Source of the DNA: Candidatus Doudnabacteria bacterium
Lineage (GTDB): Bacteria > Patescibacteriota > Doudnabacteria > UBA920
Assembly: GCA_963837465.1 (NCBI GenBank)
Contig: CAWINB010000004.1
Span: 330,853-394,852, forward strand
Reading direction: 5' to 3'
DNA length: 64,000 nt
Numbering within the stretch: the stretch's first letter is position 1; each line of letters opens with the position of its first letter. Positions 15,629 through 59,947 of the stretch are shown piece by piece. The notes below the pieces were generated by a model, which had not been told where the DNA came from, did no database searches, and saw only the letters and a program-made list of their open reading frames with translations. A program made the position numbers and the translations under genes.

Positions 15629-16293
15629 TGCTTGGCGGTTAGGAATTAAATCTTAACGTTTAAAACTTCAATAAACTTTTAGTTCAATTTTGCTCTTATG
15701 TAAGCGGGCATCGCTGATTATAGGAGATCCCTATTGGCACCTGGGAGACTGGACATTATCCACATTTAAGATGGATATGTTTTTTTTAGCCTCAATTTTA
15801 GACCCTTCAGGATCAAATTATAGAGGCTAATCCGCCGAAGCCTTGGCGAAGGCTGGATAACTAAGTTTGATCGCCGATAAATCGGCACGCTACGCCAATC
15901 ATCTTGGTCAAAGCAAAGTACCTCAAAATGAGATGCTCCGCTCCGCTCAGGATGCGTTCCTACGGAACTGTACCTTAACAGTTAAATAGTGATTAGAAAA
16001 CACTGAATACCGCCCGGTATTTAGTGTGTACAAAACCATCGCGTCTTGACCTATTTAAACCAGGTTGAGATGCAATGTTTGCGTCAATTCAATATGAGTT
16101 CAATGATATTCTGTGAATAACAGAAAAATGTTTTGTTAGGTTTACATTTTACAAAAATAAATCTAACGCCAACTTAACATCAATATTTATATTCGTGTTA
16201 AGAGGTTTGTCTTTTAGACAGATCAAACTTTCAATTTTATTTCCGTCCCGCCAAAGGCTGGGACAATTCAGGATTTATAATTGATTTCTAATA

Positions 16294-17860
<1,567 letters not shown>

Positions 17861-17872
<12 letters not shown>

Positions 17873-18137
17873 AAGGAACTTTTCTTGACTACACTGGTTT
17901 TCGAACTGTGTGTCAAGACATTCTGTTGGTCGTCGTCAATTATTTCGATTTTTGACGCAATCCTTTCTCAATAAGAAACGACGTAAACGTAAGTGGTTTT
18001 GTATAGCGGTAATTCTACCCATATTTAGCAATAAATATGGGCCTGAGCGCCTTTAATGCTCGGGGTCACTATTTAGCCGTTAAAAAACGGAAATTGCAAT
18101 TAAAAAGCCTGACTTCTACTACTGAAGTGAGGCTTTT
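17861..18137 (+). other. 16S tail + trailer + terminator segment, copy S-A
   Basis: gtcactatttagccgttaa (18065-18083) pairs 18/19 with the leader ttaacagttaaatagtgat (15975-15993). tggttttgta (17994-18003) pairs with the leader tacaaaacca (16029-16038). Terminator hairpin at 18107-18137. Confidence 0.75.
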
Positions 18138-19121
18138 ATGTTTTATAAGGAAAGTGTCGTAGAAACATCTACGAAAACCGACAGTAGGGTTTTGCCATCG
18201 TCCCCGGCTGTTTACAGCCCAAAGATGAGCGAGTTGGTTGATGGGTTTTTAAAGCACGGTCAGTTTGATTTAAGCTGGTCGGCTGGGACAGTCGCAAAAT
18301 ACGGTGAGTGTTTACGGATGACTATTCGGGACATCGGCGATTTGCCGGTAAATGAAATCCGTTTGGTTCACCTTACGGAATTAAAATCTAAAATAATAAT
18401 GCGCGGAGCCGGAGAGTCCAGAGTCGGCTCAATGGTTTTTGCGTTAAAAAGTTTTTTAAAATACTGCAAGGAAATTGTGGAGTTGGATGTGCTGGACTTT
18501 AACAAGATTACCCCGCCAAAACGCCATCGCCGGGAAGTGCTGTTTTTGACCAACGAAGAAATTCAGCGGTTTGTGGATGTTATAAAAATAAAAAATACCT
18601 GGGATGGGAAAAATAAAAAGAGTTGCGTCCGAATGGATGGTCTAAGGTTCAGGGCTTTGGTAGAAGTCTTGCTTGGCAGCGGTATGAGAATATCCGAGGC
18701 GTTATCGCTTAACCGGGGTAGTATAAATTTTGAAAAGAAAGAGGCAAAAATTATCGGTAAAGGTAGCAAGGAACGCACGGTATTTTTTAACGATCGTTCG
18801 TTGGAATGGGTTAGGTATTTATTGGAAGAAAGGAAGGACAGTCACGAACCTTTATTTCTTTCCCAAAAAGGCAACAGGTGGGATAAGGGAGAAGTTAATA
18901 AACTGTTTCAGCGTTATACTAAAAAAGCGGAAATCACCAAAAAATTAACGCCCCATATTCTGCGGCATACTATGGCCACAAACTTACTTTTTAACGGTTG
19001 CCCGATTTCCCACGTCAAAGAAATTTTAGGCCATGATAGGCTGGAAACCACGTGCCGCTACTATCTGGGTTTGGACAAGAGTAAGGCCAAGGAGGCTCAC
19101 GAAAAATTCTTGAATTATTAA
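18138..19121 (+). CDS. Tyrosine recombinase/integrase, class A (copy 1)
   Basis: GMRISEALSL (R), HILRHTMATN (H-x-x-R), LGHDRLETTCRYY (H and Y). 327 aa. Paralogs at 34943 and 47997. Confidence 0.9.
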   Translation: MFYKESVVETSTKTDSRVLPSSPAVYSPKMSELVDGFLKHGQFDLSWSAGTVAKYGECLRMTIRDIGDLPVNEIRLVHLTELKSKIIMRGAGESRVGSMVFALKSFLKYCKEIVELDVLDFNKITPPKRHRREVLFLTNEEIQRFVDVIKIKNTWDGKNKKSCVRMDGLRFRALVEVLLGSGMRISEALSLNRGSINFEKKEAKIIGKGSKERTVFFNDRSLEWVRYLLEERKDSHEPLFLSQKGNRWDKGEVNKLFQRYTKKAEITKKLTPHILRHTMATNLLFNGCPISHVKEILGHDRLETTCRYYLGLDKSKAKEAHEKFLNY

Positions 19122-21255: not shown

Positions 21256-21258
21256 CAT

Positions 21259-26502: not shown

Positions 26503-26524
26503 TCTAAATAATCAAAATCCCTCT

Positions 26525-28991: not shown

Positions 28992-29128
28992 TAAAAGTTA
29001 ATTTTGAGACTGGAAATTGAGCTATCAAAGTTTATTTAATGGCTGAATTGCCTGTCCCAACTGTTGGGATTTGGTGTGCCGTGGCTTTCACGGATGCAGT
29101 TAATGTTCCTATAAATCAATAAGGAGGG

Positions 29129-29806
29129 ATGACGCCAATGGAAACCCCGTTGACCGTATCCACTAACAATCCCCGAGAAGGCAAACAGGGCCGGAAGTTG
29201 TATTACCGGCTCAAAACCTCAATTAAGAAATCCGGATTATTAATTGTAGCGCTTCAACCCGCGCTTGAGTTCCCCGGCACAGCGATGGAAGACGACATCG
29301 CGGCTATCTTGGTAAAGTATTCCAAGATGGCTCGTGGCATCGTTACTCCCGTCCGCGCCGAGGACACCGGCCTCATGCCCCAGGGCTATTCGGTATACCT
29401 CACGCCGCAGGGCGTTCGCAAGGATCGTCTGGAAGGCGACGTCGAGCTGGCTAATGTCGACTACATCTGCCCGTTGCGGGATGATGATGGCGACTATATC
29501 GGCGGCGAGGTAATGCTCCAGCGGTCGGTCGAACTCAAGGCCATCGGTAGCCTCGGCTACGCTTTCGCGCTTCTCAAGGCGCAGGAGCAAGGGAAGGAAA
29601 TCTTTCCTGTCGAGTCGCGCGGCAAGCATTATTTCATTATGCCGCTCACCGAGCTGCTCGGTGACGACCGTGGCCGCCGCGTGGCTTGCTTCGGCTGGCA
29701 CGGCAAGTCGCTGCGTTGGGTGCTCTTCTTCCGTTGGGTCGGCGGCGTCTTCGCTCGCCGCGGTCGGTTTGTTGTTCCCCGCGAGAAGAAGCCCTCGGTC
29801 GCTTAG
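29129..29806 (+). CDS. DGR variable (target) protein
   Basis: 225-aa ORF whose last ~50 codons are the variable repeat. The C-terminus ...ACFGWHGKSLRWVLFFRWVGGVFARRGRFVVPR parallels the TR-encoded ...AYFNWNDKSQRWVLNFNWVDNNFNRNDRFVVPR. Confidence 0.85.
   Translation: MTPMETPLTVSTNNPREGKQGRKLYYRLKTSIKKSGLLIVALQPALEFPGTAMEDDIAAILVKYSKMARGIVTPVRAEDTGLMPQGYSVYLTPQGVRKDRLEGDVELANVDYICPLRDDDGDYIGGEVMLQRSVELKAIGSLGYAFALLKAQEQGKEIFPVESRGKHYFIMPLTELLGDDRGRRVACFGWHGKSLRWVLFFRWVGGVFARRGRFVVPREKKPSVA
29654..29782 (+). repeat. DGR variable repeat (VR)
   Basis: 129 nt aligning without gaps to 30148-30276. By my hand alignment there are 26 differences, all at template adenines. Confidence 0.9.
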
Positions 29807-29853
29807 TCCCTCGGCTCTGCCGCTGGGTTCTGGACTCTTGGCGCTTCGCATTG

Positions 29854-29894
29854 CCCCGCATTTTGACTTCGGTCAGGATGCGGGGTGTTTTTTT
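29854..29894 (+). terminator. Terminator after the DGR target gene
   Basis: ccccgcat...atgcgggg stem with an inner tgac ttcg gtca, followed by a T7 run. Confidence 0.7.
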
Positions 29895-30147
29895 GTCCAA
29901 AATTTTGAAAGTTTGGTATAATTTAAGTAGATGGGATTTATGCCTGCGGTTAAGGCTTCAGGTGACCACATCTCGCATTGTTAAAAAACCAGAGTATCGG
30001 CGGCTACGGTTTCCGGTAGAGTGTTTTTTAACAAATCTTAAAAAGAAGATACTCGGTGCAAAGTATTGGCGGGCTTTAAGGCCCCAAATAAAATACAACC
30101 CCAAGAGTATTCAAGGGGTGGTGGCTTGGAATATACTTTGCATAATC

Positions 30148-30276
30148 CTGCTCGATGACAACCGTAACCGCAACGTGGCTTACTTCAACTGGAACGACAA
30201 GTCGCAGCGTTGGGTGCTCAACTTCAATTGGGTCGACAACAACTTCAATCGCAACGATCGGTTTGTTGTTCCCCGC
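30148..30276 (+). repeat. DGR template repeat (TR)
   Basis: Rich in AAC/AAT codons. Identical to the VR except at adenines. The last 19 nt (tcggtttgttgttccccgc) are A-free and identical in both copies. Confidence 0.9.
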
Positions 30277-30644
30277 TATTGTCTTCTTACTCCTCCCACA
30301 ACGGGAGGAGTTTCTTTTAATAACTGCCGCTGCCAGCCGCCAAACATTTTACCCGCGTCAACCAGAGGTGTTGAAATATCACTAAATTGTTTATTGTCTA
30401 AGGCTTTTAACTCCCAAGCCAATTGTAGGAAGTATTTAAGGGTATCAAGTTTAATGCTTGCCTTTTGAATTAAGATTGACTTGCTATCCCTTGAGGTAAA
30501 GCCCGCTGTCAGCGTTAGTTCAATAACATCGGTGAACAGGACATTGATTTTTTCAGCCAAGGAGTATTTTACCAGCTTGGGCAGGTGTGGCAGGTAGTTG
30601 TGCCAGAGTTTGTAAGCATCGGTAATTTTTTGTAATACCGGCAA
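30276..30644 (-). CDS. avd: Avd-like four-helix-bundle accessory protein
   Basis: 122 aa. The pattern KITDAYKLWHNYLPHLPKLVKYSLAEKI...LDTLKYFLQLAWELKALDNKQF fits the four-helix-bundle (23S-IVS protein/Avd) family. On the opposite strand to the TR and RT. Confidence 0.7.
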   Translation of the reverse strand: MPVLQKITDAYKLWHNYLPHLPKLVKYSLAEKINVLFTDVIELTLTAGFTSRDSKSILIQKASIKLDTLKYFLQLAWELKALDNKQFSDISTPLVDAGKMFGGWQRQLLKETPPVVGGVRRQ

Positions 30645-30662
30645 GTTGATAAAATTTCCGTT

Positions 30663-30673
30663 GGGGGGGGGGG
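30663..30673. repeat. G11 homopolymer between the avd and RT starts
   Basis: ttgggggggggggttg, counted as 11 G. Confidence 0.9.
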
Positions 30674-30703
30674 TTGTTAAAAGTCATTTTTATAAGTTTA
30701 ATT

Positions 30704-31717
30704 ATGAAAACGCAATTAAAAATAAGTTACGAGGAAATCATTTCACTCGAAAATTTGTTTGCCGCCTGGCAGGAGTTTTTGCCGGGCAAGAGAAAAAAGA
30801 AAGACGTGCAGGAATTTGGCCTTAGGCTTGCTGATAACATTTTACAGCTTCAGGAGGAACTTGCCAATTTTAGCTATATCCACGGCCCATACAAGGCCTT
30901 TAACATTTCTGACCCCAAGCCGAGGAATATCCATAAGGCAAGCGTTCGGGACAGAGTTTTACATCACGCCATTTACCGCAAACTATATCCGTTTTTCGAC
31001 AAAACTTTTATCGGCAGTTCGTATTCCTGCCGTTTGGACAAAGGAGTTCACAAGGCTTTGAATAAGTTTAGGGCATTGGCGTTTAAAGCAAGTAAAAATC
31101 ATACGCAAACAGCTTGGGTGCTCAAGTGTGATATTAAAAAGTTTTTCGCCAGCATTGACCATGCAAAACTGCTGAAAATTTTATCAGCTTACGTTCCCGA
31201 TAAAAATATTCTTTGGGTTTTAGAGCGAATTATTTATAGCTTTGATTATAAGGTAGCAGGCCGCGGCCTCCCGCTTGGCAACCTGACCTCCCAATTATTT
31301 TGCAACGTATATATGAACGAATTTGACCAATTCATAAAACACAAACTCAAGGCCAAATATTATATCCGTTATGCTGATGATTTTGTTTTTTTATCGGGTA
31401 GCAAGGACGAGCTAATATCCTTAGTTCCTAAAGTAGCCGAGTTTTTAGGAGAGGACTTAAAACTGTCTTTGCATCCGGATAAAGTTTTTATAAAGACCTT
31501 GGCCTCGGGCGTGGACTTCCTGGGCTGGGTGCATTTCCCTCATTACCGGGTTCTAAGAAAAAATACCGGCAGAAGAATGTTCAAACGAATTTACGGCCAT
31601 CCAACAAATGAAACATTCCAGTCATATTTAGGGTTAATGAGCCACGGAAATACTTACGGGCTTAAACAAAAATTGTTGAATTGGTATGGGTTACTTAAAA
31701 CAGCACAGCAGGAATAG
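30704..31717 (+). CDS. DGR-type reverse transcriptase
   Basis: RT motifs including LPLGNLTSQLFCNVYMNEFD (the DGR-typical GxxxSQ) and YADDFVF. 337 aa from the ATG at 30704. Confidence 0.9.
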   Translation: MKTQLKISYEEIISLENLFAAWQEFLPGKRKKKDVQEFGLRLADNILQLQEELANFSYIHGPYKAFNISDPKPRNIHKASVRDRVLHHAIYRKLYPFFDKTFIGSSYSCRLDKGVHKALNKFRALAFKASKNHTQTAWVLKCDIKKFFASIDHAKLLKILSAYVPDKNILWVLERIIYSFDYKVAGRGLPLGNLTSQLFCNVYMNEFDQFIKHKLKAKYYIRYADDFVFLSGSKDELISLVPKVAEFLGEDLKLSLHPDKVFIKTLASGVDFLGWVHFPHYRVLRKNTGRRMFKRIYGHPTNETFQSYLGLMSHGNTYGLKQKLLNWYGLLKTAQQE

Positions 31718-31786
31718 AAAAGGCCACGTTGCTGGAACGTGGCCCCCGTCTTAATGTGACGACGGATTGAGTGGCTGCTTGCGGGA

Positions 31787-32242
31787 TTACCGACTGACGT
31801 AGGCGAACTGGCCTTCCTGCACCGGCTTGCGTTCGGTAGCGCCGACCAGCGAAGCGACAGTCATGCGCATACCCACCGGCAGATTTTGGAGGAGTGTGGC
31901 ATGGCCGCCTTTGAAGCGGATTGCATCGCGGTAGTTGTTGACCCGCTCGCTGAGCTGATCGAACGTCGCTTCCTGCGGTTTTCCATTGCCTTTGTTGAGA
32001 TTCAACTTGGCTCCGGGTGGAACGCAGATGGCGCAGACAACGGGCGGGTTATTGCTGGTGACAGCTTGTTTGATTTTAGCCACCACACCCGTTTCATTAC
32101 GAACCGACTGCCACGCCTGAAAGGCGTTTAAGTCAGCTACGGAGGCCAGACCGATTGTGCCTGTGCCGAAGCGGTGAGTAACGAGTTCCTCACCCTCTTG
32201 AGCCAGACGGTTATTGACTCCCATCAAGGAGTAGTCGCACAT
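31787..32242 (-). CDS. Hypothetical protein in a G+C-rich patch
   Basis: I prefer the start at MCDYSLMG, which has agaggg 9 nt upstream. Composition is visibly more G+C-rich than the surroundings. Confidence 0.45.
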   Translation of the reverse strand: MCDYSLMGVNNRLAQEGEELVTHRFGTGTIGLASVADLNAFQAWQSVRNETGVVAKIKQAVTSNNPPVVCAICVPPGAKLNLNKGNGKPQEATFDQLSERVNNYRDAIRFKGGHATLLQNLPVGMRMTVASLVGATERKPVQEGQFAYVSR

Positions 32243-32549
32243 AGGGTTAAACCCTCTTTCCAATTGGATTTTCAAGGTCATGACAGCACCATGAATTATC
32301 CAAATCATAAACGAACAGAGAGAGAGAGAGTCAATAGAGGATTTTTTATGCAAGGTCGCTAAAAAAATTGATTTTTGCTAAAATATAGTAAACACTACGG
32401 GTCGATTTATAAAAAATTTATGCCGGACTATAATCACCTGCTTGTAACAACCCAAGCTAAAAGCAAAAGGCCAAAATGGTGGTGGATAGTAATTGTTATT
32501 TTTGCAGTTTTGATAGTAATTGTGCTATTAAAAAAATAATTTTATAACT

Positions 32550-33200
32550 ATGGAAACTGAAACCCGTTCTACCCCCCCCCATACCTCTTCCGAGAACCCA
32601 GACACTTGGGTCAAAGACACCACCCAAGCTATGAGGAAGCCTGGCGGCAGGGACTTGGCCGACTACAAGGAATTTTTAGGATTTACCGAAAATGAGCTTG
32701 CAGGCAAGACAATTTTAGATTTGGGTTCGGGTTCAAAAGAAAAATTATCACGCCAGCTAAAGGAAGCCGGCGTTGTTGCTAATGTAGTTAGTCTGAACCC
32801 GGATTATACCATTCCTAAGTATAGGCGCATTATAAACAACGAGGAAGACTGGCAGAAAAAATCCGTAGCCGCCTTAGCCCAAAGCCTGCCTTTTAAGGAT
32901 GGCAGCTTTGACAGTGTTTTATCTTTGGAAGCCATAACGATGTATGAGGATGCTTTTGAAAAACCGGACAGTGCCAAAAAATGGGCGGCAGAAATAGCAA
33001 GGGTCTTAAAACCCGGCGGCGAAGCAAGGCTGGGAGAAATTTTGGGTTTCAAAGGTGAACTAAAGCAACAGGCTTGGCAGGAGCTGGTTAGGCTTTTTGC
33101 GGATTTAGGCGTAGAGGCAAGAATTGAGCAATTTAAAATCAGGGAAACAAACCCGATGCCGAGATTTAGGTTGGTTCTGAAAAAATCTTTAATCCAATAA
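32550..33200 (+). CDS. Class I SAM-dependent methyltransferase with a C9 tract in codons 8-10
   Basis: ILDLGSGSKE (motif I), FDSVLS, LKPGGEARL. The C9 run is at 32572-32580. Confidence 0.65.
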   Translation: METETRSTPPHTSSENPDTWVKDTTQAMRKPGGRDLADYKEFLGFTENELAGKTILDLGSGSKEKLSRQLKEAGVVANVVSLNPDYTIPKYRRIINNEEDWQKKSVAALAQSLPFKDGSFDSVLSLEAITMYEDAFEKPDSAKKWAAEIARVLKPGGEARLGEILGFKGELKQQAWQELVRLFADLGVEARIEQFKIRETNPMPRFRLVLKKSLIQ

Positions 33201-33222
33201 TTAACCATTAACCTTTTTATTT

Positions 33223-33657
33223 ATGACAGAAATCAAAAGAAATTTTGAGGATGAACCCACTCGCCAAGAGCGTGATCCTCAACATTTAGAAGTAAAGCGT
33301 TTGTTTGAATCCTTAGCAGCCCAACACGGCACTGGGATTATGCTTAAGTATATTGAAAGTGTTACCGATGTTGCTCCCAAAGTGGCGTCCGAATGGTTTG
33401 AAGGTCATCGTCATCCCAGCTCAGGTATTCGCAAGGCTATCCTTAACTGCTTGCGGAATTTTAAGCATGAAGATTTACCCAAGCAACCGGAACATATAAA
33501 AGCTCCGCTGGCTACCAGTCAGCCAAAAGAAAATAAACAAATTCCAACAAGACAGCCAAGGCCGCAGGAGCAGAAAAAACAGGAAACCATTGCAAAAAAT
33601 GAAGCTGAGCTTAAAGCCATAATGGATAGGGCAAGGGAAAAGGGGCAAATAACTTAG
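33223..33657 (+). CDS. Hypothetical protein
   Basis: 144-aa ORF with a charged, low-complexity C-terminus. Confidence 0.35.
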   Translation: MTEIKRNFEDEPTRQERDPQHLEVKRLFESLAAQHGTGIMLKYIESVTDVAPKVASEWFEGHRHPSSGIRKAILNCLRNFKHEDLPKQPEHIKAPLATSQPKENKQIPTRQPRPQEQKKQETIAKNEAELKAIMDRAREKGQIT

Positions 33658-33725
33658 TTTTTTATAGATTTATTGGTCTTTATATAGGACTTGACAATGT
33701 GGTGTTTACCATATACAATTGAAGT

Positions 33726-34040
33726 ATGGATTTCATATTAAACAATTTTGAGGGTTTTGAGTGGGATGAGGGGAACGAACAAAAGAGCTTTTTGAAACAT
33801 GGCATTACGCCATTGGAAGCGGAAGAAGCATTTTTTAACCCCAATTTTATATCAGCTGATCCTGTCCATAGCCAGAGCGAAAAGCGTTACCGCTTATTGG
33901 GCAGAACTAACAGTAGTAAAGTTTTAATAATAGCTTTTACAATAAGAAGTAACAAAGCGAGAGTTATCTCTTCGCGATTAGCCAATAAAAAAGAAAGGAC
34001 ATTATATGACCAAGCAGTTAAAGCCAATTCCCAAATTTAA
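33726..34040 (+). CDS. brnT: BrnT-family (DUF497) toxin
   Basis: FEWDEGNEQKSFLKHGITPLEAEEAF is the BrnT signature. Confidence 0.8.
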   Translation: MDFILNNFEGFEWDEGNEQKSFLKHGITPLEAEEAFFNPNFISADPVHSQSEKRYRLLGRTNSSKVLIIAFTIRSNKARVISSRLANKKERTLYDQAVKANSQI

Positions 34041-34272
34041 GACTGAAGCCGAAGAAGCCAAGTTTTGGAATAGCCACGACTCTACCCAGTATATTGACTG
34101 GTTAAAAGCCCCGCGTGGCGTTTTTCCTAACCTAAAACCATCTTCTCAATCTGTTTCACTTCGCATTCCAGCCAACATATTAGCTCGCATTAAAGTGCAA
34201 GCCAATCAGTTAGACGTGCCTTATCAATCTTTGATGAAGCAGTATATTGCTAACGGTGTAATGAAGAATTAA
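34006..34272 (+). CDS. brnA: BrnA-family antitoxin
   Basis: Overlaps brnT. EEAKFWNSHDSTQYIDW plus a C-terminal ribbon-helix-helix-like segment. Confidence 0.75.
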   Translation: MTKQLKPIPKFKTEAEEAKFWNSHDSTQYIDWLKAPRGVFPNLKPSSQSVSLRIPANILARIKVQANQLDVPYQSLMKQYIANGVMKN

Positions 34273-34277
34273 ATGCA

Positions 34278-34487
34278 ATGGGCAGTATAAGACATATTGA
34301 CGCAGGTCATCCGGATGAGTGGTATAAGGACAGGTTTATGGTCACATTTACCGAGGAAGGTATAATGGATCTGAGGTACCAAGATTGGGTTGGCGGCAGG
34401 ATGGAAGTGTATGTTGTGGGAGAGCAGTATGCAATAGATGAAATTCGGTTTTTTTACCCCAAACACATTAGAATGGATAAACTTTAG
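34278..34487 (+). CDS. Hypothetical protein
   Basis: 69-aa ORF with no recognisable motif. Confidence 0.25.
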   Translation: MGSIRHIDAGHPDEWYKDRFMVTFTEEGIMDLRYQDWVGGRMEVYVVGEQYAIDEIRFFYPKHIRMDKL

Positions 34488-34587
34488 GGAGCAATATGAT
34501 GGCAAGTGGTTAGATAAAACTGCATTTGAAGACGTAGTGGAAACGGTAAAGAAAAGGTTTTACACCAAACCAGAAAGCAGAATTTAA

Positions 34588-34662
34588 CAATTAAATTGAT
34601 CTTTTAAATTTTTAATACAGTAGTAGTTTGTCAGGCAATTTCCGTTTACAACGGCTCAGAAA
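34588..34662 (+). repeat. Right-end repeat R1, copy a
   Basis: Matches 51785-51858 except for a 1-nt indel. Ends ...gcaatttccgtttacaacggctcagaaa immediately before CACCTCC. Confidence 0.85.
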
Positions 34663-34679
34663 CACCTCCTTTCTAAGGA
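34663..34679 (+). repeat. att core copy 2 (cacctcctttctaagga)
   Basis: 17/17 identical to the 16S 3' tail at 17861-17877. Confidence 0.85.
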
Positions 34680-34942
34680 ATAAATATGCAGCCTTAAACT
34701 TTTCGAAGTTTATGTTGTTGCACATTCCAGTGGTCGTCATCTTCTATTTCGATAGAAGGTGCACATACTCTAACGATTGAACGTAAACGAACGGTTTTGT
34801 AAAAGGTAATTCTACCCTTATTTTCGCAAGATTATAAGGAGTCTCAACGCCTTAAATGTTGGGAGTCACTATTTAGCCGTTAAGGGAACTTAACGAAATT
34901 GCAAATAAAAGCCTCGTCATCAGCAATGATAACGAGGTTTTT
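34663..34942 (+). other. 16S tail + trailer + terminator segment, copy S-B
   Basis: Shares ggtcgtc, acgtaaacg, ggttttgta, ggtaattctaccc, gtcactatttagccgtta and gaaattgcaa with S-A. UUCG hairpins at 34696-34711 and 34741-34758. Terminator at 34912-34942. Confidence 0.75.
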
Positions 34943-35929
34943 ATGTATGAGGTTAATTCGGTAGAAAGAGTCGCAAAAGGTGGAATTGCGGCGACAGTCA
35001 GCCCCGCCGCTCCTATCGGCACAAAGATTAGCACTTTGGTGCCGCAATTCTTGGCTTATGGCCAGTATGACCTGTCCTTTGCCGCAGGCACCATAGAGAA
35101 ATACCGCGATAGCCTAAACGTCTTTATGCGGGACGTTGGGGATTTGCCCGTAGAGGAATTAAACTTTGGGCATTTTACTTTGCTGAAACAAAAAATTATG
35201 GAAAGGGGGTCGGGGGTCTCACGCATAGCGGGCGTGGTCTTTGCGATGAAAAGTATGTTAAAGTTTGCTACCGACGTATTGGAGATGCAGATTTTGGATT
35301 ATAAGAAAATCAGAGCGCCGAAGCGGCGCAGGCGGGACGTAGTTTATTTAACCAATGCCGAAATCCAGCAGTTCGTTGACAGCATAAAGTTTGAAAAATG
35401 CTGGACGGGCAATACCCGTAAAAAGGGCATCAGCGTCCACCGCCTGAGGTTTCGGACTTTGGTTGAAGTCTTGCTTGGCACGGGGATGCGTATAAGCGAA
35501 GCATTGTCGCTTACAAGGGATGTTATAAACTTTGAAAAAGGCGAGGCTAAGATAATCGGCAAAGGAAGCAAGGAGCGCACAGTGTTTTTTAACGAACGGG
35601 CTTTGTATTGGATTAAGTTTTATTTGGAACAGAGAAACGACGACAATCCCGTTATATTTTTAAACCGAAAAGGCAAGCCGCTGGACAGGGGCGATGCCGA
35701 TACTTTGTTTAAGCGTTACGCAGAAAGGTCAGGTATAACTAAAAAATTAACGCCGCACATTTTGCGGCACACGATGGCGACGAATCTGCTTTTTAACGGA
35801 TGCCCGATTGGCCATATTAAGGAAATCCTCGGACACGACCGATTAGAGACAACTTGTCGTTATTATTTGGGCTTAGACAAAGATAAAGCTAAAGAAGCCC
35901 ACGGCCAATTTTTAAATTACGAACAATAA
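34943..35929 (+). CDS. Tyrosine recombinase/integrase, class A (copy 2)
   Basis: GMRISEALSL, HILRHTMATNLLFNGCPI, LGHDRLETTCRYY. Confidence 0.9.
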   Translation: MYEVNSVERVAKGGIAATVSPAAPIGTKISTLVPQFLAYGQYDLSFAAGTIEKYRDSLNVFMRDVGDLPVEELNFGHFTLLKQKIMERGSGVSRIAGVVFAMKSMLKFATDVLEMQILDYKKIRAPKRRRRDVVYLTNAEIQQFVDSIKFEKCWTGNTRKKGISVHRLRFRTLVEVLLGTGMRISEALSLTRDVINFEKGEAKIIGKGSKERTVFFNERALYWIKFYLEQRNDDNPVIFLNRKGKPLDRGDADTLFKRYAERSGITKKLTPHILRHTMATNLLFNGCPIGHIKEILGHDRLETTCRYYLGLDKDKAKEAHGQFLNYEQ

Positions 35930-39632: not shown

Positions 39633-40682
39633 ATGAACAATATGACAACCTTCACTAAACAGTGGACTTCCAATAGGCCTAGAATTTTCGGGGTCTTTGG
39701 GAAAACCCAGCAGGATGACACATTTGAAATTTTAATTCCAAAATTTCTTGACTACGCCCAATTTGATTTGAAACTGGCCAAAGAGACCATCGGAAAATAC
39801 AAAGAATCTTTGGGTTGGGTGACAAGGTATCTGCCCGACGTGGAACGCCCCGCCCAAATGACGCTGGAAGATGTTACCCGAATTAAAAAGCAGGTGGCAA
39901 TGCGTGGCAATAGCGAGGCTCGGACTAACTCCATTATCTTCGCCTTGCGGAAGTTTTTGGACTATTGCGGCAAGCGGATGCAGATTGAAACCATTGACCC
40001 AAAGACCATAGAGCCGCTGAAAATCCCCAAGCGGGAAGTTATCTACCTTAACAAGGACGAGATAAAAAATCTGCGTGATGTATTTGACTTAGCCAACAAG
40101 CGGGAGTTCCGAATGCGGGTGCTGGTGGAATTTCTGCTCGGCACGGGAATGAGAATCTCTGAAGCGCTATCGGTCAATCGTGAGCAGATTAATTATGACA
40201 GCAAGGAAATAAAAATTGTCGGCAAGGGCAACAAGGAGCGCACAGTTTTTGTTTCCGATGATGCCTTAGGCTGGATAAAAAGGTATCTGGATACCCGCAC
40301 GGATGACAATCCTGCTGTCTTTATAACCTTTGGCGAGCAAGAAAGGTTAAGGCGGGGCGACTTGGCAGAATTATTAAGAGGTTATGGAATAAAAGCGGGG
40401 CTACAGAAGAAAGTTACGCCGCATATCTTGAGACACTCATCGGCAACCACGATGATGCGGAAAGGCTGTCCTCTGCCTTACATCCAGCAGTTGCTCGGCC
40501 ACGCCGACATTAAAACGACCGCCAAATATTATCTTGGCGTTGATAAACAATCCGTCAAAGATGCTCACGAAAAATATCTTAAGTTCGACCACCACCGTTT
40601 GGGAATGGCGGCACCTGTGCGTAAAGGTATTGACTTGGATAGCTACCTTGAGTATTTCTCGGCCTATCTTCCGAAAGAGTAG
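39633..40682 (+). CDS. Tyrosine recombinase/integrase, class B (copy 2)
   Basis: GMRISEALSV, HILRHSSATTM, LGHADIKTTAKYY. Has a ~30-aa C-terminal extension. Confidence 0.9.
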   Translation: MNNMTTFTKQWTSNRPRIFGVFGKTQQDDTFEILIPKFLDYAQFDLKLAKETIGKYKESLGWVTRYLPDVERPAQMTLEDVTRIKKQVAMRGNSEARTNSIIFALRKFLDYCGKRMQIETIDPKTIEPLKIPKREVIYLNKDEIKNLRDVFDLANKREFRMRVLVEFLLGTGMRISEALSVNREQINYDSKEIKIVGKGNKERTVFVSDDALGWIKRYLDTRTDDNPAVFITFGEQERLRRGDLAELLRGYGIKAGLQKKVTPHILRHSSATTMMRKGCPLPYIQQLLGHADIKTTAKYYLGVDKQSVKDAHEKYLKFDHHRLGMAAPVRKGIDLDSYLEYFSAYLPKE

Positions 40683-45817: not shown

Positions 45818-45833
45818 TAATAGCATAAAAATG

Positions 45834-46049
45834 CCAATTTAGTTTTCCTACAAAAAGCTATTAAAACTCAATCGGCTAATTTAGGCTCTTAAACAATAGT
45901 GGGTAGCACAGAGGGTAAACTTTGGGAGGGGATAACTGTGTTGCTACAACTTTTTGTAATCGCTAACATCTGTGTAAGACTTTAAAAATTAAATATCTTT
46001 GCTGACCGAAGCGTAGTGCAGGAATTATTTTTTTACACCTCGGATTAAA
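45834..46049 (+). repeat. Right-end repeat R2, copy a
   Basis: About 216 nt, homologous to 47498-47720. Shared blocks are ctattaaaac, aaacaatagtggg, ggtaaactttgg, ggataact, cgctaacatc, tttaaaaattaaatatc and ttacacctcggattaaa. Confidence 0.8.
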
Positions 46050-46056
46050 CACCTCC
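46050..46056 (+). repeat. att core copy 3 (cacctcc followed by atacggctaca)
   Basis: Heptamer preceded by ...cggattaaa and followed by the short left-end type. Confidence 0.6.
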
Positions 46057-47486: not shown

Positions 47487-47497
47487 GGGATTATGGC

Positions 47498-47720
47498 CAG
47501 TTTAGTTTTTGTATAAGAATCTATTAAAACTAAATCGGCTTTAAACAATAGTGGGCGGTAGTGGGGGTAAACTTTGGAGGGGATAACTTTGTTGCTAAAA
47601 AATTTTACTGCCGCTAACATCCGAGTAGCAATTTAAAAATTAAATATCATCGCTGTAAGCGAGCTTGAAAATAAATAGTGGGAGCGAGTGGGGGTGAACA
47701 ACTTTACACCTCGGATTAAA
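47498..47720 (+). repeat. Right-end repeat R2, copy b
   Basis: See 45834-46049. Contains ataaatagtggg (leader-like) and ends ...ttacacctcggattaaa. Confidence 0.8.
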
Positions 47721-47737
47721 CACCTCCTTTCTAAGGA
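47721..47737 (+). repeat. att core copy 4 (cacctcctttctaagga)
   Basis: 17/17 identical to the 16S 3' tail. Confidence 0.85.
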
Positions 47738-47996
47738 ACAATATGCACCCTTTTCCCTTTTCGAAGGGGAATGTTGGTTCACATTCCGTAGGTCGTCGTT
47801 AATTTTTTCGAAAATTAGCGCACTTCTTGAAACTTCAAAGAACGACGTAAACTGGTGGTTTTGTAACGGTAATTCTACCGTATTTAGCAATAAATACGGC
47901 CTAAGCGCCATTAATGCTTGGGATCACTATTTAGCCGTTAAAGGTTAAACACGAAATTGCAAAGAAAGTCTCGGCCGTTATGGTGCGAGGCTTTTT
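47721..47996 (+). other. 16S tail + trailer + terminator segment, copy S-C
   Basis: UUCG hairpins at 47754-47769 and 47800-47817. ggttttgta, ggtaattctacc and atcactatttagccgttaa are conserved. Terminator at 47967-47996. Confidence 0.75.
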
Positions 47997-48968
47997 ATGT
48001 TCTATGCAAAAACGTCACTTGAATCAACCGCTAAAGTAGGAACTTTAGCGCCAATCTCCAATGATTTGACAATGAGCCAGCTCATTCCAATGTTTTTAAA
48101 GTACGGTCAGTTTGAATTAATGTTCTCACAGAACACGCTCACCAAATACGACGAGTGTTTAAAATGGGTTGTTAGGGACATCGGCGATTTGAAGGTCACG
48201 GAGTTAAGCCTGTTCCATTTTACCGAGTTAAAACAGATAATAACTAACCGTGGTTGCGGCACCAGCCGCGTTGCTTCCATGGTGTTCTCCATGAAGAGTT
48301 TCCTTAAGTATTGCAAGGACTATCTAGAGCTGCCGGTCATGGATTACAAAAAGATAAGGTCGCCGCGGTTTAAGCGCCGTGAAGTGATTTATTTAACTAA
48401 CGAAGAGATTGAGCAGTTTGTCAGCGCCATTAAAATAGAGAATGGCCCTCGTGCCATAAATTCGGTACGTATGGATGGCCTAAGGTTTCGGGTACTGGTG
48501 GAAGTCTTGCTCGGCACCGGCATGCGCATTTCTGAAGCCTTGTCGCTTAACAGGGATATGGTTGATTTTGAAAAGGCCGAAGCCAAGATTATAGGCAAAG
48601 GCAGCAAAGAACGTACAGTATTTTTCAGCGAGCGGTCGCTTGATTGGGTCAAGCGTTATCTATCCCTGCGTACAGACAATGAACCCGCTTTGTTTCTCAC
48701 CCAGCAGAATACGCGCCTGTCCAAGATAGATGTGCCCGGCTTCTTTAAACGGTACAGCAAGAAGGCCGGTATAACGAAGAAACTGACACCGCACGTGCTC
48801 AGGCATACCTGTGCTACGAACCTCTTGTTTAACGGCTGTCCCATAAACAATGTTCAAGTAATTTTAGGGCATGACCGGCTGGAAACCACCTGTCGCTATT
48901 ATCTCGGTGTTGACAAAACAAAAGCCAAAGAGGCACATGGCAACTTTTTAAATTATCAATTGTCGTAA
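47997..48968 (+). CDS. Tyrosine recombinase/integrase, class A (copy 3)
   Basis: GMRISEALSL, HVLRHTCATNLLFNGCPI, LGHDRLETTCRYY. Confidence 0.9.
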   Translation: MFYAKTSLESTAKVGTLAPISNDLTMSQLIPMFLKYGQFELMFSQNTLTKYDECLKWVVRDIGDLKVTELSLFHFTELKQIITNRGCGTSRVASMVFSMKSFLKYCKDYLELPVMDYKKIRSPRFKRREVIYLTNEEIEQFVSAIKIENGPRAINSVRMDGLRFRVLVEVLLGTGMRISEALSLNRDMVDFEKAEAKIIGKGSKERTVFFSERSLDWVKRYLSLRTDNEPALFLTQQNTRLSKIDVPGFFKRYSKKAGITKKLTPHVLRHTCATNLLFNGCPINNVQVILGHDRLETTCRYYLGVDKTKAKEAHGNFLNYQLS

Positions 48969-51003: not shown

Positions 51004-51779
51004 TGCTGACTTTAGAACAAATTGAACAGCAGTATCCGGAAAACTTACGAGGCTTTAAGCGTTCGCTGCTTCGGGAGTATTTGCAGTATAAGATTTTAGA
51101 AATTATTTTTGCCTCTGAGTATGCCACCAAGTTAGTTTTTATCGGCGGCACGGCTTTAAGGATAGTTCACGACAACAGTCGTTTTTCGGAAGATGTGGAC
51201 TTTGATAATTTCGGATTAACGGCAGCCGAGTTTGAGGAGACATCGCAAAAGGTTAAGGCAGGACTTACAGCGGAAGGGTTTAATGTTGAAATAGGCTTTA
51301 GGGGTAAGGAATCCTACCGCTGTGATGTAAAGTTTCCCGGCTTACTCTTTGGGAGCGGACTTTCGCAGCACGAAGGCGAAAAGATACTGGTGCAAATAGA
51401 TAGTTTATCCCAAGGCTTTAGCTATAAGCCTGAACGTAAGATATTAAACAAGTTTGATGTTTTTACGGAAATTTTTACCCCTTCGCCCGAGTTATTACTA
51501 TCTCAAAAGATTAACGCTATTTTTACACGGAAGCGGGCAAAGGGCAGGGACTTTTATGATGTTGTGTTTTTACTATCCTTTACAAAGCCAAACTATCAGT
51601 TTTTGACGCAAAAGTGGGGAATTGAGAATGGTGAGGGATTAAGAGCAAAGCTAATGGAAATGGCTTCCAAGCTCGATTTTAAGGATTTGGCACGGGATGT
51701 AGAGCCGTTTCTATTCAATCCGAGTGACAGTAAGAAGGTTGAGTTATTCGCGGATTTTATTAAGCAAGCTAAGTTGTAA
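51003..51779 (+). CDS. abiEii: AbiEii/DUF1814 nucleotidyltransferase toxin
   Basis: LREYLQYKILEIIF...LVFIGGTALRIVHDNSRFSEDVDFD is the AbiEii pattern. Confidence 0.75.
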   Translation: MLTLEQIEQQYPENLRGFKRSLLREYLQYKILEIIFASEYATKLVFIGGTALRIVHDNSRFSEDVDFDNFGLTAAEFEETSQKVKAGLTAEGFNVEIGFRGKESYRCDVKFPGLLFGSGLSQHEGEKILVQIDSLSQGFSYKPERKILNKFDVFTEIFTPSPELLLSQKINAIFTRKRAKGRDFYDVVFLLSFTKPNYQFLTQKWGIENGEGLRAKLMEMASKLDFKDLARDVEPFLFNPSDSKKVELFADFIKQAKL

Positions 51780-51784
51780 GTTAG

Positions 51785-51858
51785 CAATTAATTGATCTTT
51801 TAAATTTTTAATACAGTAGTAGTTTGTCAGGCAATTTCCGTTTACAACGGCTCAGAAA
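51785..51858 (+). repeat. Right-end repeat R1, copy b
   Basis: Nearly identical to 34588-34662. Confidence 0.85.
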
Positions 51859-51865
51859 CACCTCC
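51859..51865 (+). repeat. att core copy 5 (cacctcc followed by ctccggctaca)
   Basis: Heptamer preceded by ...ggctcagaaa. Followed by a short left end with the terminator cccgctc gtaatt gagaggg ttttt. Confidence 0.6.
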
Positions 51866-59935: not shown

Positions 59936-59947
59936 CACCTCCTTTCT
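59936..59947 (+). repeat. att core copy 6 (cacctcctttct), distal boundary of the array
   Basis: 12/12 identical to the 16S tail. Preceded by gtcggggtgaa (compare 16S gtcgtggat). Followed by unique sequence and the LCP gene. Confidence 0.7.

Follow-up and report, generated by a model that had tools for sequence, protein, structure and literature searches.

The window analysed here (the whole stretch of DNA, 64,000 nt) holds, as read from its sequence, islands of Xer-like tyrosine integrases and defence cargo that are arrayed in tandem within the 3' end of a 16S rRNA gene from a probable Patescibacteria bacterium. We give roughly even chances to the reading that one of the window's repeats, RE1, is the right-hand attachment end of such mobile islands, which would insert one after another at this site. 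That the window holds a tandem island array follows from the heptamer CACCTCC, which is repeated at every unit boundary and in which RE1 itself terminates. CACCTCC is the anti-Shine-Dalgarno (anti-SD) heptamer of the 16S, 7-10 nt from the 16S rRNA 3' end, and, as expected of islands in a stable RNA gene, it is found with the rest of the 16S end, i.e. CACCTCC(TTTCTAAGGA), at 17861, 34663 and 47721 and as CACCTCC at 46050, 51859 and 59936, the 16S end being copied again at 34660 and 47718. The array holds five tyrosine integrases plus defence cargo (Table 1). Unit 3 consists of one gene with no integrase, and its right end RE2b contains the leader box AAATAGTG; CTAAATAGTGAC, which is the trailer box in reverse complement, lies in the right end before core copy 6. 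No trailer-like sequence was found after the last core, at 59943, so the displaced native trailer that is expected under a simple integration model is missing. Nor did the sequences show any transcript, circular junction or empty attB site. The 16S 3'-end location, CACCTCC as putative crossover core and the RNA nature of the trailer had all been missed in the preliminary description of this DNA.

Table 1. Coordinates of the 16S gene, cores, trailers, right ends and class-A integrases in the window
Feature	Position	Strand	Remarks
16S leader box TTAACAGTTAAATAGTGA	15975..15992	+	complementary to trailer box TCACTATTTAGCCGTTAA
Further colinear leader boxes	about 16027-16039 and 16075-16085	+	
Bacterial 16S rRNA gene	16287..17870	+	Rfam SSU_rRNA_bacteria, 1274.6 bits; 3' end GATCACCTCCTTTCTAAGGA, putative attachment target
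Core copy 1, CACCTCC	17861..17867	+	within 16S gene; unit 1 left junction
Trailer TR1	17868..18137	+	element-borne 16S end (TTTCTAAGGA) and putative surrogate 3' spacer
TR1 segment, inverted counterpart of RE1	18075..18124	+	overlaps 5' half of terminator hairpin
TR1 distal hairpin AGCCGTT-AAAAA-ACGG-AAATTGC	18075-18097	+	
TR1 predicted terminator/SD-sequestering hairpin	18107-18133	+	T-run abuts integrase ATG
Class-A Xer-like tyrosine integrase A1	18138..19121	+	Pfam PF00589, 9.6e-40; NCBIfam XerA/C/D-like, below cutoffs
RE1 copy 1	34581..34662	+	repeat search, self-BLAST, inverted-match analysis
RE1 copy 1, degenerate leader-like box	34585-34601	+	then AT-rich stretch
RE1 copy 1, inverted trailer segment CAGTAGTAG..GTCAGG..GCAATTTCCGTTTACAACGGCT	34618-34656	+	
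RE1 copy 1, core-proximal arm AACGGCTCAGAAA	34650-34662	+	abuts CACCTCC
Core copy 2, CACCTCC	34663..34669	+	unit 1 / unit 2 junction; confirmed in L118
Trailer TR2, unit 2	34670..34942	+	
Class-A integrase A2	34943..35929	+	identical to database protein P0039, on 868-kb contig
Type-2 right end RE2a with core copy 3 (46050-46056)	45833..46056	+	closes unit 2
Type-2 right end RE2b with core copy 4 (47721-47727)	47496..47727	+	closes unit 3
Trailer TR4, unit 4	47728..47996	+	95% identical to trailer behind 16S gene of Doudnabacteria MAG L005
Class-A integrase A4	47997..48968	+	identical to P0045
RE1 copy 2	51778..51858	+	directly 3' of AbiEi/AbiEii (50383-51779)
Core copy 5, CACCTCC	51859..51865	+	then trailer-less left end CTCCGGCTACAG
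Core copy 6, CACCTCC	59936..59942	+	last in window

The two copies of RE1 are 100% identical over 76 nt in a repeat search of the window (34594-34669 and 51790-51865), and in a gapped self-BLAST the match lengthens to 34581-34669 against 51778-51865, with 96.6% identity over 89 nt and one 1-nt indel. Near-identical right ends with a 1-nt indel had been reported before and are real; the extent then given (34588-34662 and 51785-51858) lies inside the match and stops 7 nt short of its true end, because the identity continues through CACCTCC. The contrast drawn earlier with diverged integrases and trailers also holds up in self-comparison, since identity is 72-78% among the linked trailers and, among the class-A integrases, 65-68% at gene level and 59-63% at protein level. 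RE1 is built of two parts, a conserved core-proximal arm, ACGGCT-N6-CACCTCC, and a ~40-nt inverted copy of the distal unit 1 trailer. The arm recurs in the right ends after the two closest relatives of integrase A1 (L113, L114), and the shorter CGGCT-N6-CACCTCC in the right end upstream of a third A1 relative's unit (L115); AACGGCTCAGAAA, CACCTCC and TTTCTAAG together form an imperfect inverted repeat. The last ~13 nt of RE1, AACGGCTCAGAAA, are plausibly a candidate core-type recombinase-binding arm. A consensus scan of 34300-35000 found no promoter within RE1, and RE1 as a homologue of the 16S leader was rejected, the short match TTAACAATTAAAT--TGAT alone being non-significant (p=0.09).

The integrases at 18138, 27917, 34943, 39633 and 47997 are tyrosine recombinases (PF00589, E 1e-38 to 1e-40), with the R, HxLRH and Y columns conserved in their alignment; these five paralogues lie within 30 kb, each linked to island cargo. 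They score far below the cutoffs of chromosomal XerC/XerD (158 vs 335 for TIGR02224 and 145 vs 330 for TIGR02225) and of integron integrases (84.5 vs 265 and 57 vs 435), and the right ends are heterogeneous. Alignments to the XerC/XerD/XerA models run from residue ~37-47 to ~320 of 327, with about 35 residues before that, which leaves no room for the extra N-terminal arm-binding domain (about 60-75 aa) of heterobivalent, lambda/P4-type integrases, and which makes it unlikely that the RE1 motifs are classical recombinase arm sites. The proposal that the inverted motifs are recombinase sites thus stands in part, in that a core-type arm is plausible (AACGGCTCAGAAA, with the recurring ACGGCT-N6-CACCTCC) and classical arm sites are not. 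The family comprises 1426 relatives at E<=1e-40, which the sources name only XerC/XerD. An IS256-family transposase lies between the unit 4 integrase and the AbiE-RE1 end, inverted integrase remnants adjoin integrase A4 (48956-49384, minus strand) and are also found in L005, and unit 1 has a rolling-circle-type Rep-like ORF (weak Phage_CRI match). Two candidate links between elements were dropped: the ORF at 26498-27703 and the 368-aa recombinase of L114 proved unrelated, and AbiE as a cassette common to A1-type elements was weak, the AbiEii of L113 being just 30% identical to that of the window.

The inverted part of RE1 is marked by the motif GCAATTTCCGTT-N(2-6)-AACGGCT, which has three sites in the window (18075-18097 on the minus strand, 34635-34656 and 51831-51852 on the plus strand) and none in shuffles. 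The match to the trailer is longer than had been claimed, with AGCCGTT..ACGGAAATTGC..CCTGAC..CTACTACTG shared in inverted orientation between 34618-34656 and 18075-18124 (p<0.002 against 500 shuffles), and in this extended form it is confined to the unit 1 trailer; the motif had been placed upstream of each integrase gene, and the other two class-A units share only AGCCGTT... and ...GAAATTGC. Using gapped local alignment against shuffles, the test finally adopted in place of ungapped helices, we found that right ends match their own trailers in RE1 (p<0.002), L006 (p=0.002) and L008 (p<0.002), and that TR1 is matched (p=0.006) by the last right end of the window (before 59936), which belongs to a unit lacking a trailer. 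These four cases are independent and their sequences unrelated, and the idea of inverted motifs near both ends of a unit therefore proves general. The own-trailer score exceeded the next-trailer score in four of the five pairs tested. In RE1, L006 and L008, 1-6 nt separate the core from the start of the inverted segment, as against 28 nt in the window's last right end; the counterpart of this segment lies in the distal trailer, and the complementary stretches are contiguous over about 25-45 nt. The leader box AAATAG[TC]G is present in five of eight right ends (P about 2e-10). Ungapped helices between right end and trailer (G-U allowed) were not significant over 15 junctions because of AT-rich noise, and the right ends of L113 and L003 show complementarity to neither trailer. 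In the right ends of L114 and L115, the trailer-matching motifs AAATAGYG and ACGGCT are ordered incompatibly with one continuous helix, which fits separate binding motifs as well as pairing. Inspection of the alignments gave no clear enrichment of G-U-compatible changes among the inverted-repeat mismatches, and an inverted pseudo-core beside AGCCGTT in the trailer was rejected, with just 5/13 further positions matching.

On the modelled structures, the trailer is a transcribed spacer that pairs with the 16S leader and carries covarying hairpins and a terminator hairpin abutting the integrase ATG. Colinear complementarity between leader and trailer is significant in seven of nine genomes (p<=0.005) and reaches p=0.04 in one more, with helices of 13-24 bp whose sequences differ in L009 and L011, and at the level of complementarity this is consistent with a pre-rRNA processing stem. 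The RNAalifold consensus of 11 trailers contains covarying hairpins and a terminator and leaves the leader-pairing boxes unpaired; TR1 likewise contains leader-pairing boxes and covarying hairpins. The terminator hairpin (columns 271-308, five pairs with double-sided changes, then TTTTT) has the form of an intrinsic terminator. A simple terminator scanner placed the TR2 equivalent of this hairpin on the minus strand alone and reported none in TR1; no Rfam family matched TR1 (17871-18137) at E<=1 among 4227 covariance models, and none matched the right ends at gathering threshold. With the trailer an RNA element, a role of the inverted motif at the RNA level becomes at least as likely as protein binding, and RNA-level pairing, in which the right end would act as a leader mimic, is our preferred reading of it. 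In each of the three contexts tested, the minimum-free-energy fold has RE1 paired with the trailer, and the probability of the TR1 terminator hairpin drops from 0.97 to 0.01 with RE1 upstream (0.96 with shuffled RE1). The predicted opening is specific to RE1-TR1, absent for L006, U2 and U4 and weak for L008; a general anti-terminator role of right ends was rejected, as it holds for RE1-TR1 alone and not for L006, U2 or U4.

The association of integrase and junction is conserved across genomes: 11 MAG loci have the integrase directly behind a full 16S gene, with about 260-300 nt from the 16S 3' end to the integrase start, and in 19 of the 43 closest loci, from both Patescibacteria and Acidobacteria MAGs, CACCTCCTTTCT precedes the integrase by 200-335 nt. 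One and the same unit directly follows the 16S gene in L116, but follows the right end of another unit in L115 and L117. The TR4-intA4 unit shares 89% identity with the unit behind a Doudnabacteria MAG 16S gene, and over their 3' 1.2 kb the two 16S genes are themselves only about 81% identical. In L108, a contig of a different metagenome, RE1 again follows an AbiE pair, here 93% identical, and the AbiE-RE1 end is joined to a TR2-like trailer, not to unit 5. Between the window and L108, 1/86 nt of RE1 differs as against 7.3% of the adjacent genes (P=0.012), which makes selective constraint equally consistent with the identity of RE1 as recent conversion; the RE1 module may be under constraint, adding to the identity of the two copies. 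Over the final ~300 nt leading up to RE1 the window and L108 differ less and less, and RE1 is kept in three contexts, from at least two samples. RE1 matches the unit 1 trailer, not the unit 4 trailer. Of the suggested gene conversion or exchange, exchange of RE1 between units is supported by the arrangement of the sequences (its match to unit 1, the IS256 element and L108), and recent conversion is not the sole explanation. A metagenome scan for GCAATTTCCGTT-N(2-6)-AACGGCT gave 33 matches, all of which except L108 are chance, inside unrelated genes. Viral contigs gave no match to the right-end/core pattern, the viral integrase relatives are distant (<=39% identical) and CACCTCCTT is absent from the 11 best viral loci; there is therefore no evidence that the islands are phages. 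Full-text literature searching turned up no account of integrases that target the 16S 3' end, nor anything on LOOT.

The possibility that the second RE1 copy, or the linkage across RE1, was made by the assembler is barely credible, even though the repeat is short (76-89 nt), so that the linkage of its flanks depends on spanning reads, and L108 joins AbiE-RE1 to a TR2-like trailer instead of unit 5. The flanks of the two copies differ on both sides, i.e. on 4/4 sides, and in the independent Logan assembly of ERR10755945, L124 ends 30 nt into the repeat and L118 starts 30 nt before its end, breaks that lie 30 nt inside each edge as a genuine two-context repeat would give. L118 also reproduces the U1/U2 junction, and a single 868-kb contig is on record with both integrase A2 and integrase A4. 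No independent contig is on record for the start of unit 5. The duplication by assembly that the preliminary description had named as its own refutation is contradicted by the distinct flanks, the Logan breaks and the L108 copy.

The explanation that best accounts for the anatomy, target, conservation and complementarities observed combines the attachment end of 16S-targeting islands with an RNA-level leader mimic in the right end, and as a whole we hold it with middling confidence. RE1 would form the attR side, and with it one of the attP arms, in a family of site-specific integrative islands whose Xer-like integrases would recombine at CACCTCC as crossover core. The left side of a complete island would bring the missing 16S end (TTTCTAAGGA) and a ~260-nt surrogate 3' spacer, the trailer, which would pair with the host 16S leader and whose terminator hairpin would immediately precede the integrase ATG. 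Successive integrations at the regenerated core would have built the array at 17861-59942, and the junctions predicted for unit 1 are RE1-CACCTCC-TTTCTAAGGAACTTTTCTTGAC for attP of the circle and 16S-CACCTCC-TTTCTAAGGAATAAATATGCAGCC for the excised site. The core-proximal ~13 nt, AACGGCTCAGAAA, would serve as the integrase's core-type binding arm, and the upstream RE1 strand, complementary to the distal trailer, as a leader mimic in RNA. Transcribed ahead of a trailer, a right end could pair with the element's own trailer in the excised circle, since the circle joins both ends, and with the next trailer at internal array junctions, and such pairing would build a copy of the pre-rRNA processing stem without a 16S. 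For the cognate pair RE1-TR1, the prediction is further that pairing opens the terminator/SD-sequestering hairpin ahead of the integrase gene. RE1 would then belong to an A1-type element, the right end of unit 4 being a borrowed or chimeric one of this type. Integrase binding, RNA pairing in vivo and regulation are the parts that we infer. A bolder extension, which we rate as improbable, holds that the islands are adapted to the rRNA transcription unit, that RE1-TR1 pairing in the circle switches the integrase on as an RNA sensor of integration state, that pairing at internal junctions neutralises decoy trailers and anti-SD copies, and that this is an undescribed anti-SD-targeting Xer-like family building defence islands in Patescibacteria and Acidobacteria.

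Among the competing readings, the one with most weight, though still unlikely, comes close to the proposal of the preliminary description and places the inverted motifs at the DNA level: as additional sites bound by the integrase, or by some accessory or host protein, they would give the attP complex its shape and the reaction its directionality, as lambda arm sites or the TnpI accessory motifs of the Tn4430 resolution site do. Three of the four significant cases have an inverted segment that begins 1-6 nt from the core and so overlaps where the integrase must bind, ACGGCT keeps a fixed distance from CACCTCC in RE1, L113 and L114 (CGGCT in L115), its reverse complement AGCCGT lies within the conserved trailer box, the order of motifs in L114 and L115 is incompatible with a single helix, and the better match to the own trailer than to the next would fit co-evolution with the element's integrase. 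However, the integrases, two-domain and Xer-like, lack an arm-binding domain, a contiguous complementarity of about 25-45 nt exceeds the length of a binding arm and is what nucleic-acid pairing typically shows, the mirrored trailer region belongs to a leader-pairing RNA element, and the same box stands in the leader, 1.9 kb from the core.

RE1 might also be a relic without present function, i.e. the end of a unit-1-type trailer inverted and fused beside the core, with copies that are identical through very recent duplication, conversion or an IS-mediated chimera. This we find quite improbable, as L006 and L008, whose sequences are unrelated, likewise have core-adjacent right ends that mirror their own distal trailer, right ends are enriched in the leader box, three contexts from at least two samples preserve RE1, and the inverted core GGAGGTG that an inverted unit predicts next is found at neither RE1 copy, despite the inverted integrase remnants beside A4 and in L005, the IS256-family transposase that separates A4 from AbiE-RE1, and a thinning of differences over the last ~300 nt before RE1 such as a recent recombination tract would leave. 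Even less probable is a folded single-stranded attP, in which right end and distal trailer pair in ssDNA as in the CTX-phage attP or the integron attC. Such a fold would be in keeping with the long inverted complementarity that flanks the core, with the Rep-like ORF of unit 1 and with Xer-like integrases, the kind of enzyme that acts on CTX-type substrates, but by inspection the core has no inverted partner (at best 5/13 positions beyond AGCCGTT) and would be single-stranded in it, the arms lie 130-210 nt apart, and the integron-integrase model scores 84.5 against a cutoff of 265.

If the attachment-end and leader-mimic explanation is true, the anti-Shine-Dalgarno, the most conserved bacterial heptamer, is the crossover site of a large integrase family, and insertion there would be tolerated because the element brings the remaining 16S and a working 3' processing spacer. 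This would explain the accumulation of defence and diversity-generating genes behind the 16S in ultra-small bacteria, and may explain both the lack of a 23S gene within 10 kb after these 16S genes and the frequent breaks of MAG contigs about 260-310 nt upstream of the integrase. It would also mean that pre-rRNA maturation depends in part on horizontally transferred sequence. RE1 and TR1 offer a testable pair for asking whether integration state is sensed via RNA pairing across attP, and the island junctions provide a simple delimiting rule in genomes without cultured representatives.

The closest parallels are the islands and prophages of tRNA and tmRNA genes (P4/lambda-type), which share a target in the 3' end of a stable RNA gene, a replacement 3' end, an integrase gene beside one junction and flanking direct repeats. 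Here, in contrast, the target is the 16S 3' end with its anti-SD heptamer, not a tRNA, the replacement includes a ~260-nt transcribed spacer that would have to pair with the host 16S leader, and the integrase is two-domain and Xer-like without an arm-binding domain. Head-to-tail stacking of elements, some without an integrase, with regenerated att cores and re-assortable ends is also known from ICESt1/ICESt3 and the CIMEs of Streptococcus thermophilus, which differ in recombinase family and target; the present array has single-gene integrase-less units with long structured right ends, and no conjugation genes were seen in it. Integron arrays (attC/VCR) likewise set unrelated cargo between highly similar, imperfectly palindromic ends, which can be near-identical where their neighbours have diverged. 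Unlike them, the array does not satisfy the integron-integrase model, most of its units bring their own integrase, its core is derived from the 16S, and its right ends do not appear to have the R''-L''/L'-R' layout of attC. The pre-16S leader-trailer stem cut by RNase III has the same long-range colinear 5'/3' complementarity, with structure kept and sequence varying between lineages, whereas here a mobile element would supply the 3' strand, with extra copies along the array, each after a leader-like strand. TnpI/IRS of Tn4430 sets a precedent for a two-domain tyrosine recombinase that uses extra copies of a core-type motif beside the core; those motifs are directly adjacent and serve resolution, and the copy found here lies 130-210 bp off, inverted, within an RNA element. 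In sib retroregulation of lambda int, as may be the case here, an RNA structure formed only across the joined attP could tie integrase expression to integration state, with the difference that the lambda structure lies downstream of int and triggers decay, whereas the structure predicted here, for RE1-TR1 only, would lie upstream and open a terminator/SD hairpin.

The right ends of U1 and U4, two of five tandem island units, are copies of one repeat, RE1. A repeat search of the window returned 34594-34669 against 51790-51865 as 76 nt of 100% identity, and a gapped self-comparison widened the match to 34581-34669 against 51778-51865 (96.6% over 89 nt, one indel). In the same self-comparison the trailers, i.e. 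the spacers between a 16S-end copy and its integrase, were 72–78% identical and the class-A integrase genes 65–68% (59–63% as proteins), which bears out the preliminary description of near-identical right ends beside diverged integrases and trailers. Both copies finish exactly at a CACCTCC core, so that RE1 forms the right-hand junction of both units. The inverted trailer motif reported in the right end is likewise present: GCAATTTCCGTT-N-AACGGCT occurs three times (inverted at 18075-18097, and in both right ends) with a chance expectation of none. The similarity extends further than had been noticed, with the reverse complement of RE1 matching the U1 trailer, TR1, from AGCCGTT to CTACTACTG (AGCCGTT..ACGGAAATTGC..CCTGAC..CTACTACTG; p < 0.002 versus shuffles).

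The array sits in the 3' end of a 16S rRNA gene whose anti-Shine-Dalgarno sequence, CACCTCC, recurs at 17861, 34663, 46050, 47721, 51859 and 59936, and these cores delimit the five units; the longer 16S end GATCACCTCCTTTCTAAGGA is repeated at 34660 and 47718. Nearly all array genes share the orientation of 16S, and no native trailer was found 3' of the last core (59936-59942). Two left ends, at 46050 and 51859, are trailer-less (CACCTCC-NTN-CGGCTACA) and, if ever first in the array, would yield an altered 16S tail. These starts (46050-46070 and 51859-51880) read CACCTCC-ATA-CGGCTACAA and CACCTCC-CTC-CGGCTACAG, and their CGGCTACAGAAA resembles, in direct orientation, the core-proximal arm of RE1, CGGCTCAGAAA. 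No 23S gene or tRNA was found within the window, including 59943-64000, nor a 23S gene within 10 kb downstream of the integrase in seven related loci (among L004–L011), where tRNAs are only scattered; island-bearing 16S genes thus lack a 23S gene within reach. The window's 16S gene carries an insertion of ~77 nt versus the Rfam model, a long AT-rich hairpin that is self-complementary by self-BLAST, and signatures of group I or group II introns are present in related 16S genes (L005, L007, L011).

Features of the 16S locus and island array (window positions)
Feature	Position	Content or remark
Bacterial 16S rRNA gene	16287-17870	Rfam
16S insertion	16447-16545	
U1	17868-34669	integrase A1, type III restriction-modification, second integrase, diversity-generating retroelement, BrnT/BrnA
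U2	to 46056	integrase A2, ParB-like gene and further integrase, C5 methylase, PstI-like nuclease
U3	to 47727	single HopA1-like gene; no integrase
U4	to 51865	integrase A4, inverted integrase remnant, IS256-family transposase, AbiEi/AbiEii
U5	to 59942	no integrase; IS3-type genes, SocA-like gene, metabolic genes
LOOT RNA (RF03000)	689-802; 19177-19305	second directly 3' of integrase A1
Rep ORF	26498-27703	weak Phage_CRI-like
Class B integrases	27917-28885; 39633-40682	inside U1; inside U2
Diversity-generating retroelement	29129-31717	inside U1
Variable repeat	29654-29782	3' end of ORF 29129-29806
Template repeat	30148-30276	
Reverse transcriptase	30674-31717	
Long right ends	45833-46056; 47496-47727	
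HopA1-like ORF	46125-47486	
Integrase gene 3' fragment	48956-49384	minus strand; tail-to-tail with integrase A4
IS256-family (Mutator) transposase	49209-50210	interrupts the integrase remnant

Among the cargo, all 26 mismatches between the variable and template repeats of the retroelement fall on template adenines; bAvd occurs in related islands (L114, L119/L120), as does a reverse transcriptase in L114. LOOT RNA also occurs in related islands (L005 16987-17107; L006 13497-13614), and a full-text literature search found no description of the motif. The class B integrases are 41–42% identical to A1 and have no 16S-end copy upstream; one comes after the Rep ORF, the other after the ParB-like gene and before the C5-methylase/PstI-like restriction pair, and internal integrase pairs also occur in L113 and L114.

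Scanning one genome per species, we found 416 relatives of the integrase, the closest in MAGs labelled Saccharibacteria, Doudnabacteria, Moraniibacteriota and Parcubacteria, followed by Acidobacteria; the labels Methylobacillus, Bathyarchaeia and Bdellovibrionales may reflect mis-binned contigs. The integrase starts ~260–300 nt past the 16S 3' end in 11 loci, several contigs start within the 16S end, and CACCTCCTTTCT lies 200–335 nt upstream of the integrase in 19 of the 43 closest loci, acidobacterial loci included. One identical unit is found directly behind 16S in contig L116 and, in L115 and L117, after the right end of a different unit. The unit comprising TR4 (the U4 trailer) and intA4 shares 89% identity over 1.7 kb with a unit that follows the 16S gene in a Doudnabacteria MAG, whereas the 16S genes of window and MAG agree at only ~81% over their 3'-terminal 1.2 kb, which points to horizontal transfer. 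On this evidence, linkage to the 16S end characterizes the integrase family. Acidobacterial homologues (40–58% identical; L012, L013, L014, L035, L037, ~9690-9800; L033, 11021) carry CACCTCCTTTCTAAGGAG 200–310 nt upstream of the integrase in five of six loci, the L033 copy being downstream of the integrase match. Because these 16S-end copies follow non-16S sequence, they occupy internal array positions, and 16S-end targeting seems to extend outside Patescibacteria.

The integrases are two-domain Xer-like tyrosine recombinases, scoring under the XerC, XerD, XerA and integron model cutoffs, and their model alignment leaves no room for an arm-binding domain. Membership tests placed the window integrases outside the lambda-type, XerC/D and integron integrases. 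In the protein database, 1426 relatives at E <= 1e-40 are named only XerC/XerD, and exact matches of A2 and A4 are both recorded on one contig.

The ~260 nt from 16S-end copy to class-A integrase are conserved across 11 units from different MAGs and show the behaviour of an RNA element. Their sequence is complementary to the 16S leader in colinear, antiparallel order, leader boxes TTAACAGTTAAATAGTGA, TGTACAAAACCAT and ATGTTTGCGTC matching trailer boxes TCACTATTTAGCCGTTAA, GTGGTTTTGTA and GACGTAAACGT. Eight of nine genomes show such complementarity at a significant level; L009 (15 bp) and L011 (24 bp) retain it with different sequences, and it extends to the internal trailers TR2 and TR4, which likewise match the window's leader. 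RNAalifold returned hairpins with compensatory changes that leave the leader-pairing boxes unpaired. The trailer motif of the preliminary description is the distal spacer hairpin, C(C/T)GTTAA...TTAAC(G/A)G followed by AAATTG, with a compensatory change from CCGTT/AACGG to CTGTT/AACAG in L015 and L020. The final hairpin shows covariation, holds the GAGG Shine-Dalgarno sequence within its 3' half, and is followed by a U-tract extending into the integrase ATG; no Rfam family matched the trailer. We conclude that the trailer is an element-borne substitute for the 16S 3' end and 3' external spacer.

RE1 terminates in AACGGCTCAGAAA|CACCTCC, and the two nearest A1-type elements are followed by right ends terminating in GTTACGGCTTGGTAA| (L113) and GTAACGGCTCGGTAA| (L114); all three right ends keep ACGGCT-N6-core though everything upstream differs, and in L115 the right end that precedes the unit of a third relative closes AATCGGCTCGGTAA| with CGGCT-N6-core. 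Across the core, CTCAGAAA|CACCTCC|TTTCTAAG forms an imperfect inverted repeat with a 7-nt spacer, the layout of a simple tyrosine-recombinase site, which the integrase would presumably bind. Complementarity to a trailer recurs elsewhere: reverse-complemented right ends match their own trailer in L006 (44–48 nt, p = 0.002) and L008 (38–41 nt, p < 0.002), and the final right end of the window, which closes a unit lacking its own trailer, matches TR1 (GGAGTCACTATTTAG, p = 0.006). The complementary segments of RE1 and these three right ends are mutually unrelated in sequence, begin 1–6 nt from the core (28 nt in the last right end), and in all four cases match the distal trailer; the own trailer outscored the next one in four of five tested pairs. 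A leader box, AAATAG[TC]G, the reverse complement of trailer CACTATTT, lies within 50 nt of the core in five of eight non-redundant right ends (background expectation 0.005 per 100 nt; P about 2e-10). Exceptions to trailer complementarity are L113 and L003, and a less refined helix test, covering 15 junctions, gave no significant result. A longer right-end type of 224–232 nt (two copies, 76% identical, last 25 nt identical) bears hairpins and repeated AATAGTGGG boxes; the copies bracket the one-gene, integrase-less U3, which is therefore cassette-like.

The target, the cores, the unit layout, the conserved arm, the trailer's RNA character and the complementarities are observed, and the mechanism built on them is inferred. 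In the model that we favor, the right end mimics the leader at the RNA level. Where it precedes a trailer in a transcript, be it its own trailer in the excised circle or the one at an internal junction, the RNA could form a version of the pre-rRNA stem that lacks the 16S, and any trailer fitted to the same host leader would be a pairing partner for a leader-like box, which would stop decoy trailers and decoy anti-Shine-Dalgarno copies from disturbing rRNA maturation. In minimum-free-energy predictions, RE1 pairs with the trailer both in the array (RE1 plus TR2) and in the U1 and U4 attP, the joined ends of the excised circle. For the cognate pair RE1–TR1 only, predicted pairing invades the terminator/Shine-Dalgarno hairpin, whose probability falls from 0.97 to 0.01 (0.96 with shuffled RE1), with no such predicted effect for U2, U4 or L006; this modelling suggests that integrase expression in the A1-type element depends on integration state.

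The inverted motifs might instead be accessory protein-binding sites, a reading favored by the overlap of the segment with the core arm and by the order of the two trailer-matching motifs in L114 and L115, which is incompatible with one helix; we nevertheless consider this rather unlikely, given matches that are long and contiguous and integrases without an arm-binding domain. That RE1 is the relic of an inverted unit fits the inverted integrase remnants, but recurrence of the arrangement in unrelated lineages makes it improbable, and a folded single-stranded attP is very improbable for a core without inverted partner.

As to why the two copies match, RE1 is cognate to TR1, not TR4, and U4 is rearranged, with an inverted integrase fragment and the transposase between integrase A4 and AbiE; the same inverted remnant occurs in the homologous unit of a Doudnabacteria MAG (L005 10960-11748, minus strand). 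In metagenome contig L108, a 93%-identical AbiEi/AbiEii–RE1 block is joined via the core to a TR2-like trailer (85%), not to U5. We therefore interpret U4's right part as an A1-type end that was borrowed or is chimeric, neighbouring units having swapped at the core or within RE1. Between window and L108, RE1 has one difference in 86 nt versus 7.3% in adjacent genes, mostly at third codon positions (P = 0.012), and differences are already sparser over the last 300 nt before RE1, fitting either constraint or a recent recombination tract. L108 also has three distal-trailer box and terminator modules (AATCACTATTTAGCCGTTAA...hairpin-TTTTTT; 1640-1740, 2900-3000, 3760-3870), each after a small gene group and only the first tied to a CACCTCC core, which may be trailer remnants or extra repeat-bounded cassette structure. 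In an independent Logan assembly of ERR10755945, L124 stops 30 nt into the repeat and L118 begins 30 nt before its end, reproducing the RE1–core–TR2–intA2 junction; such breaks inside RE1 indicate a genuine repeat that has two different neighbours on either side, the pairing of left with right flanks given here being that of the window's assembly.

A full-text literature search, of limited coverage, found no account of rRNA trailers borne by mobile elements or of integrases targeting the 16S 3' end, and what sets this site-specific integrative island apart is its unusual target, surrogate rRNA spacer and trailer-complementary right end. Its trailer follows the same logic as islands restoring the 3' end of a tRNA gene, and the proposed integration-state-dependent expression of the A1 integrase would resemble the logic of lambda sib.
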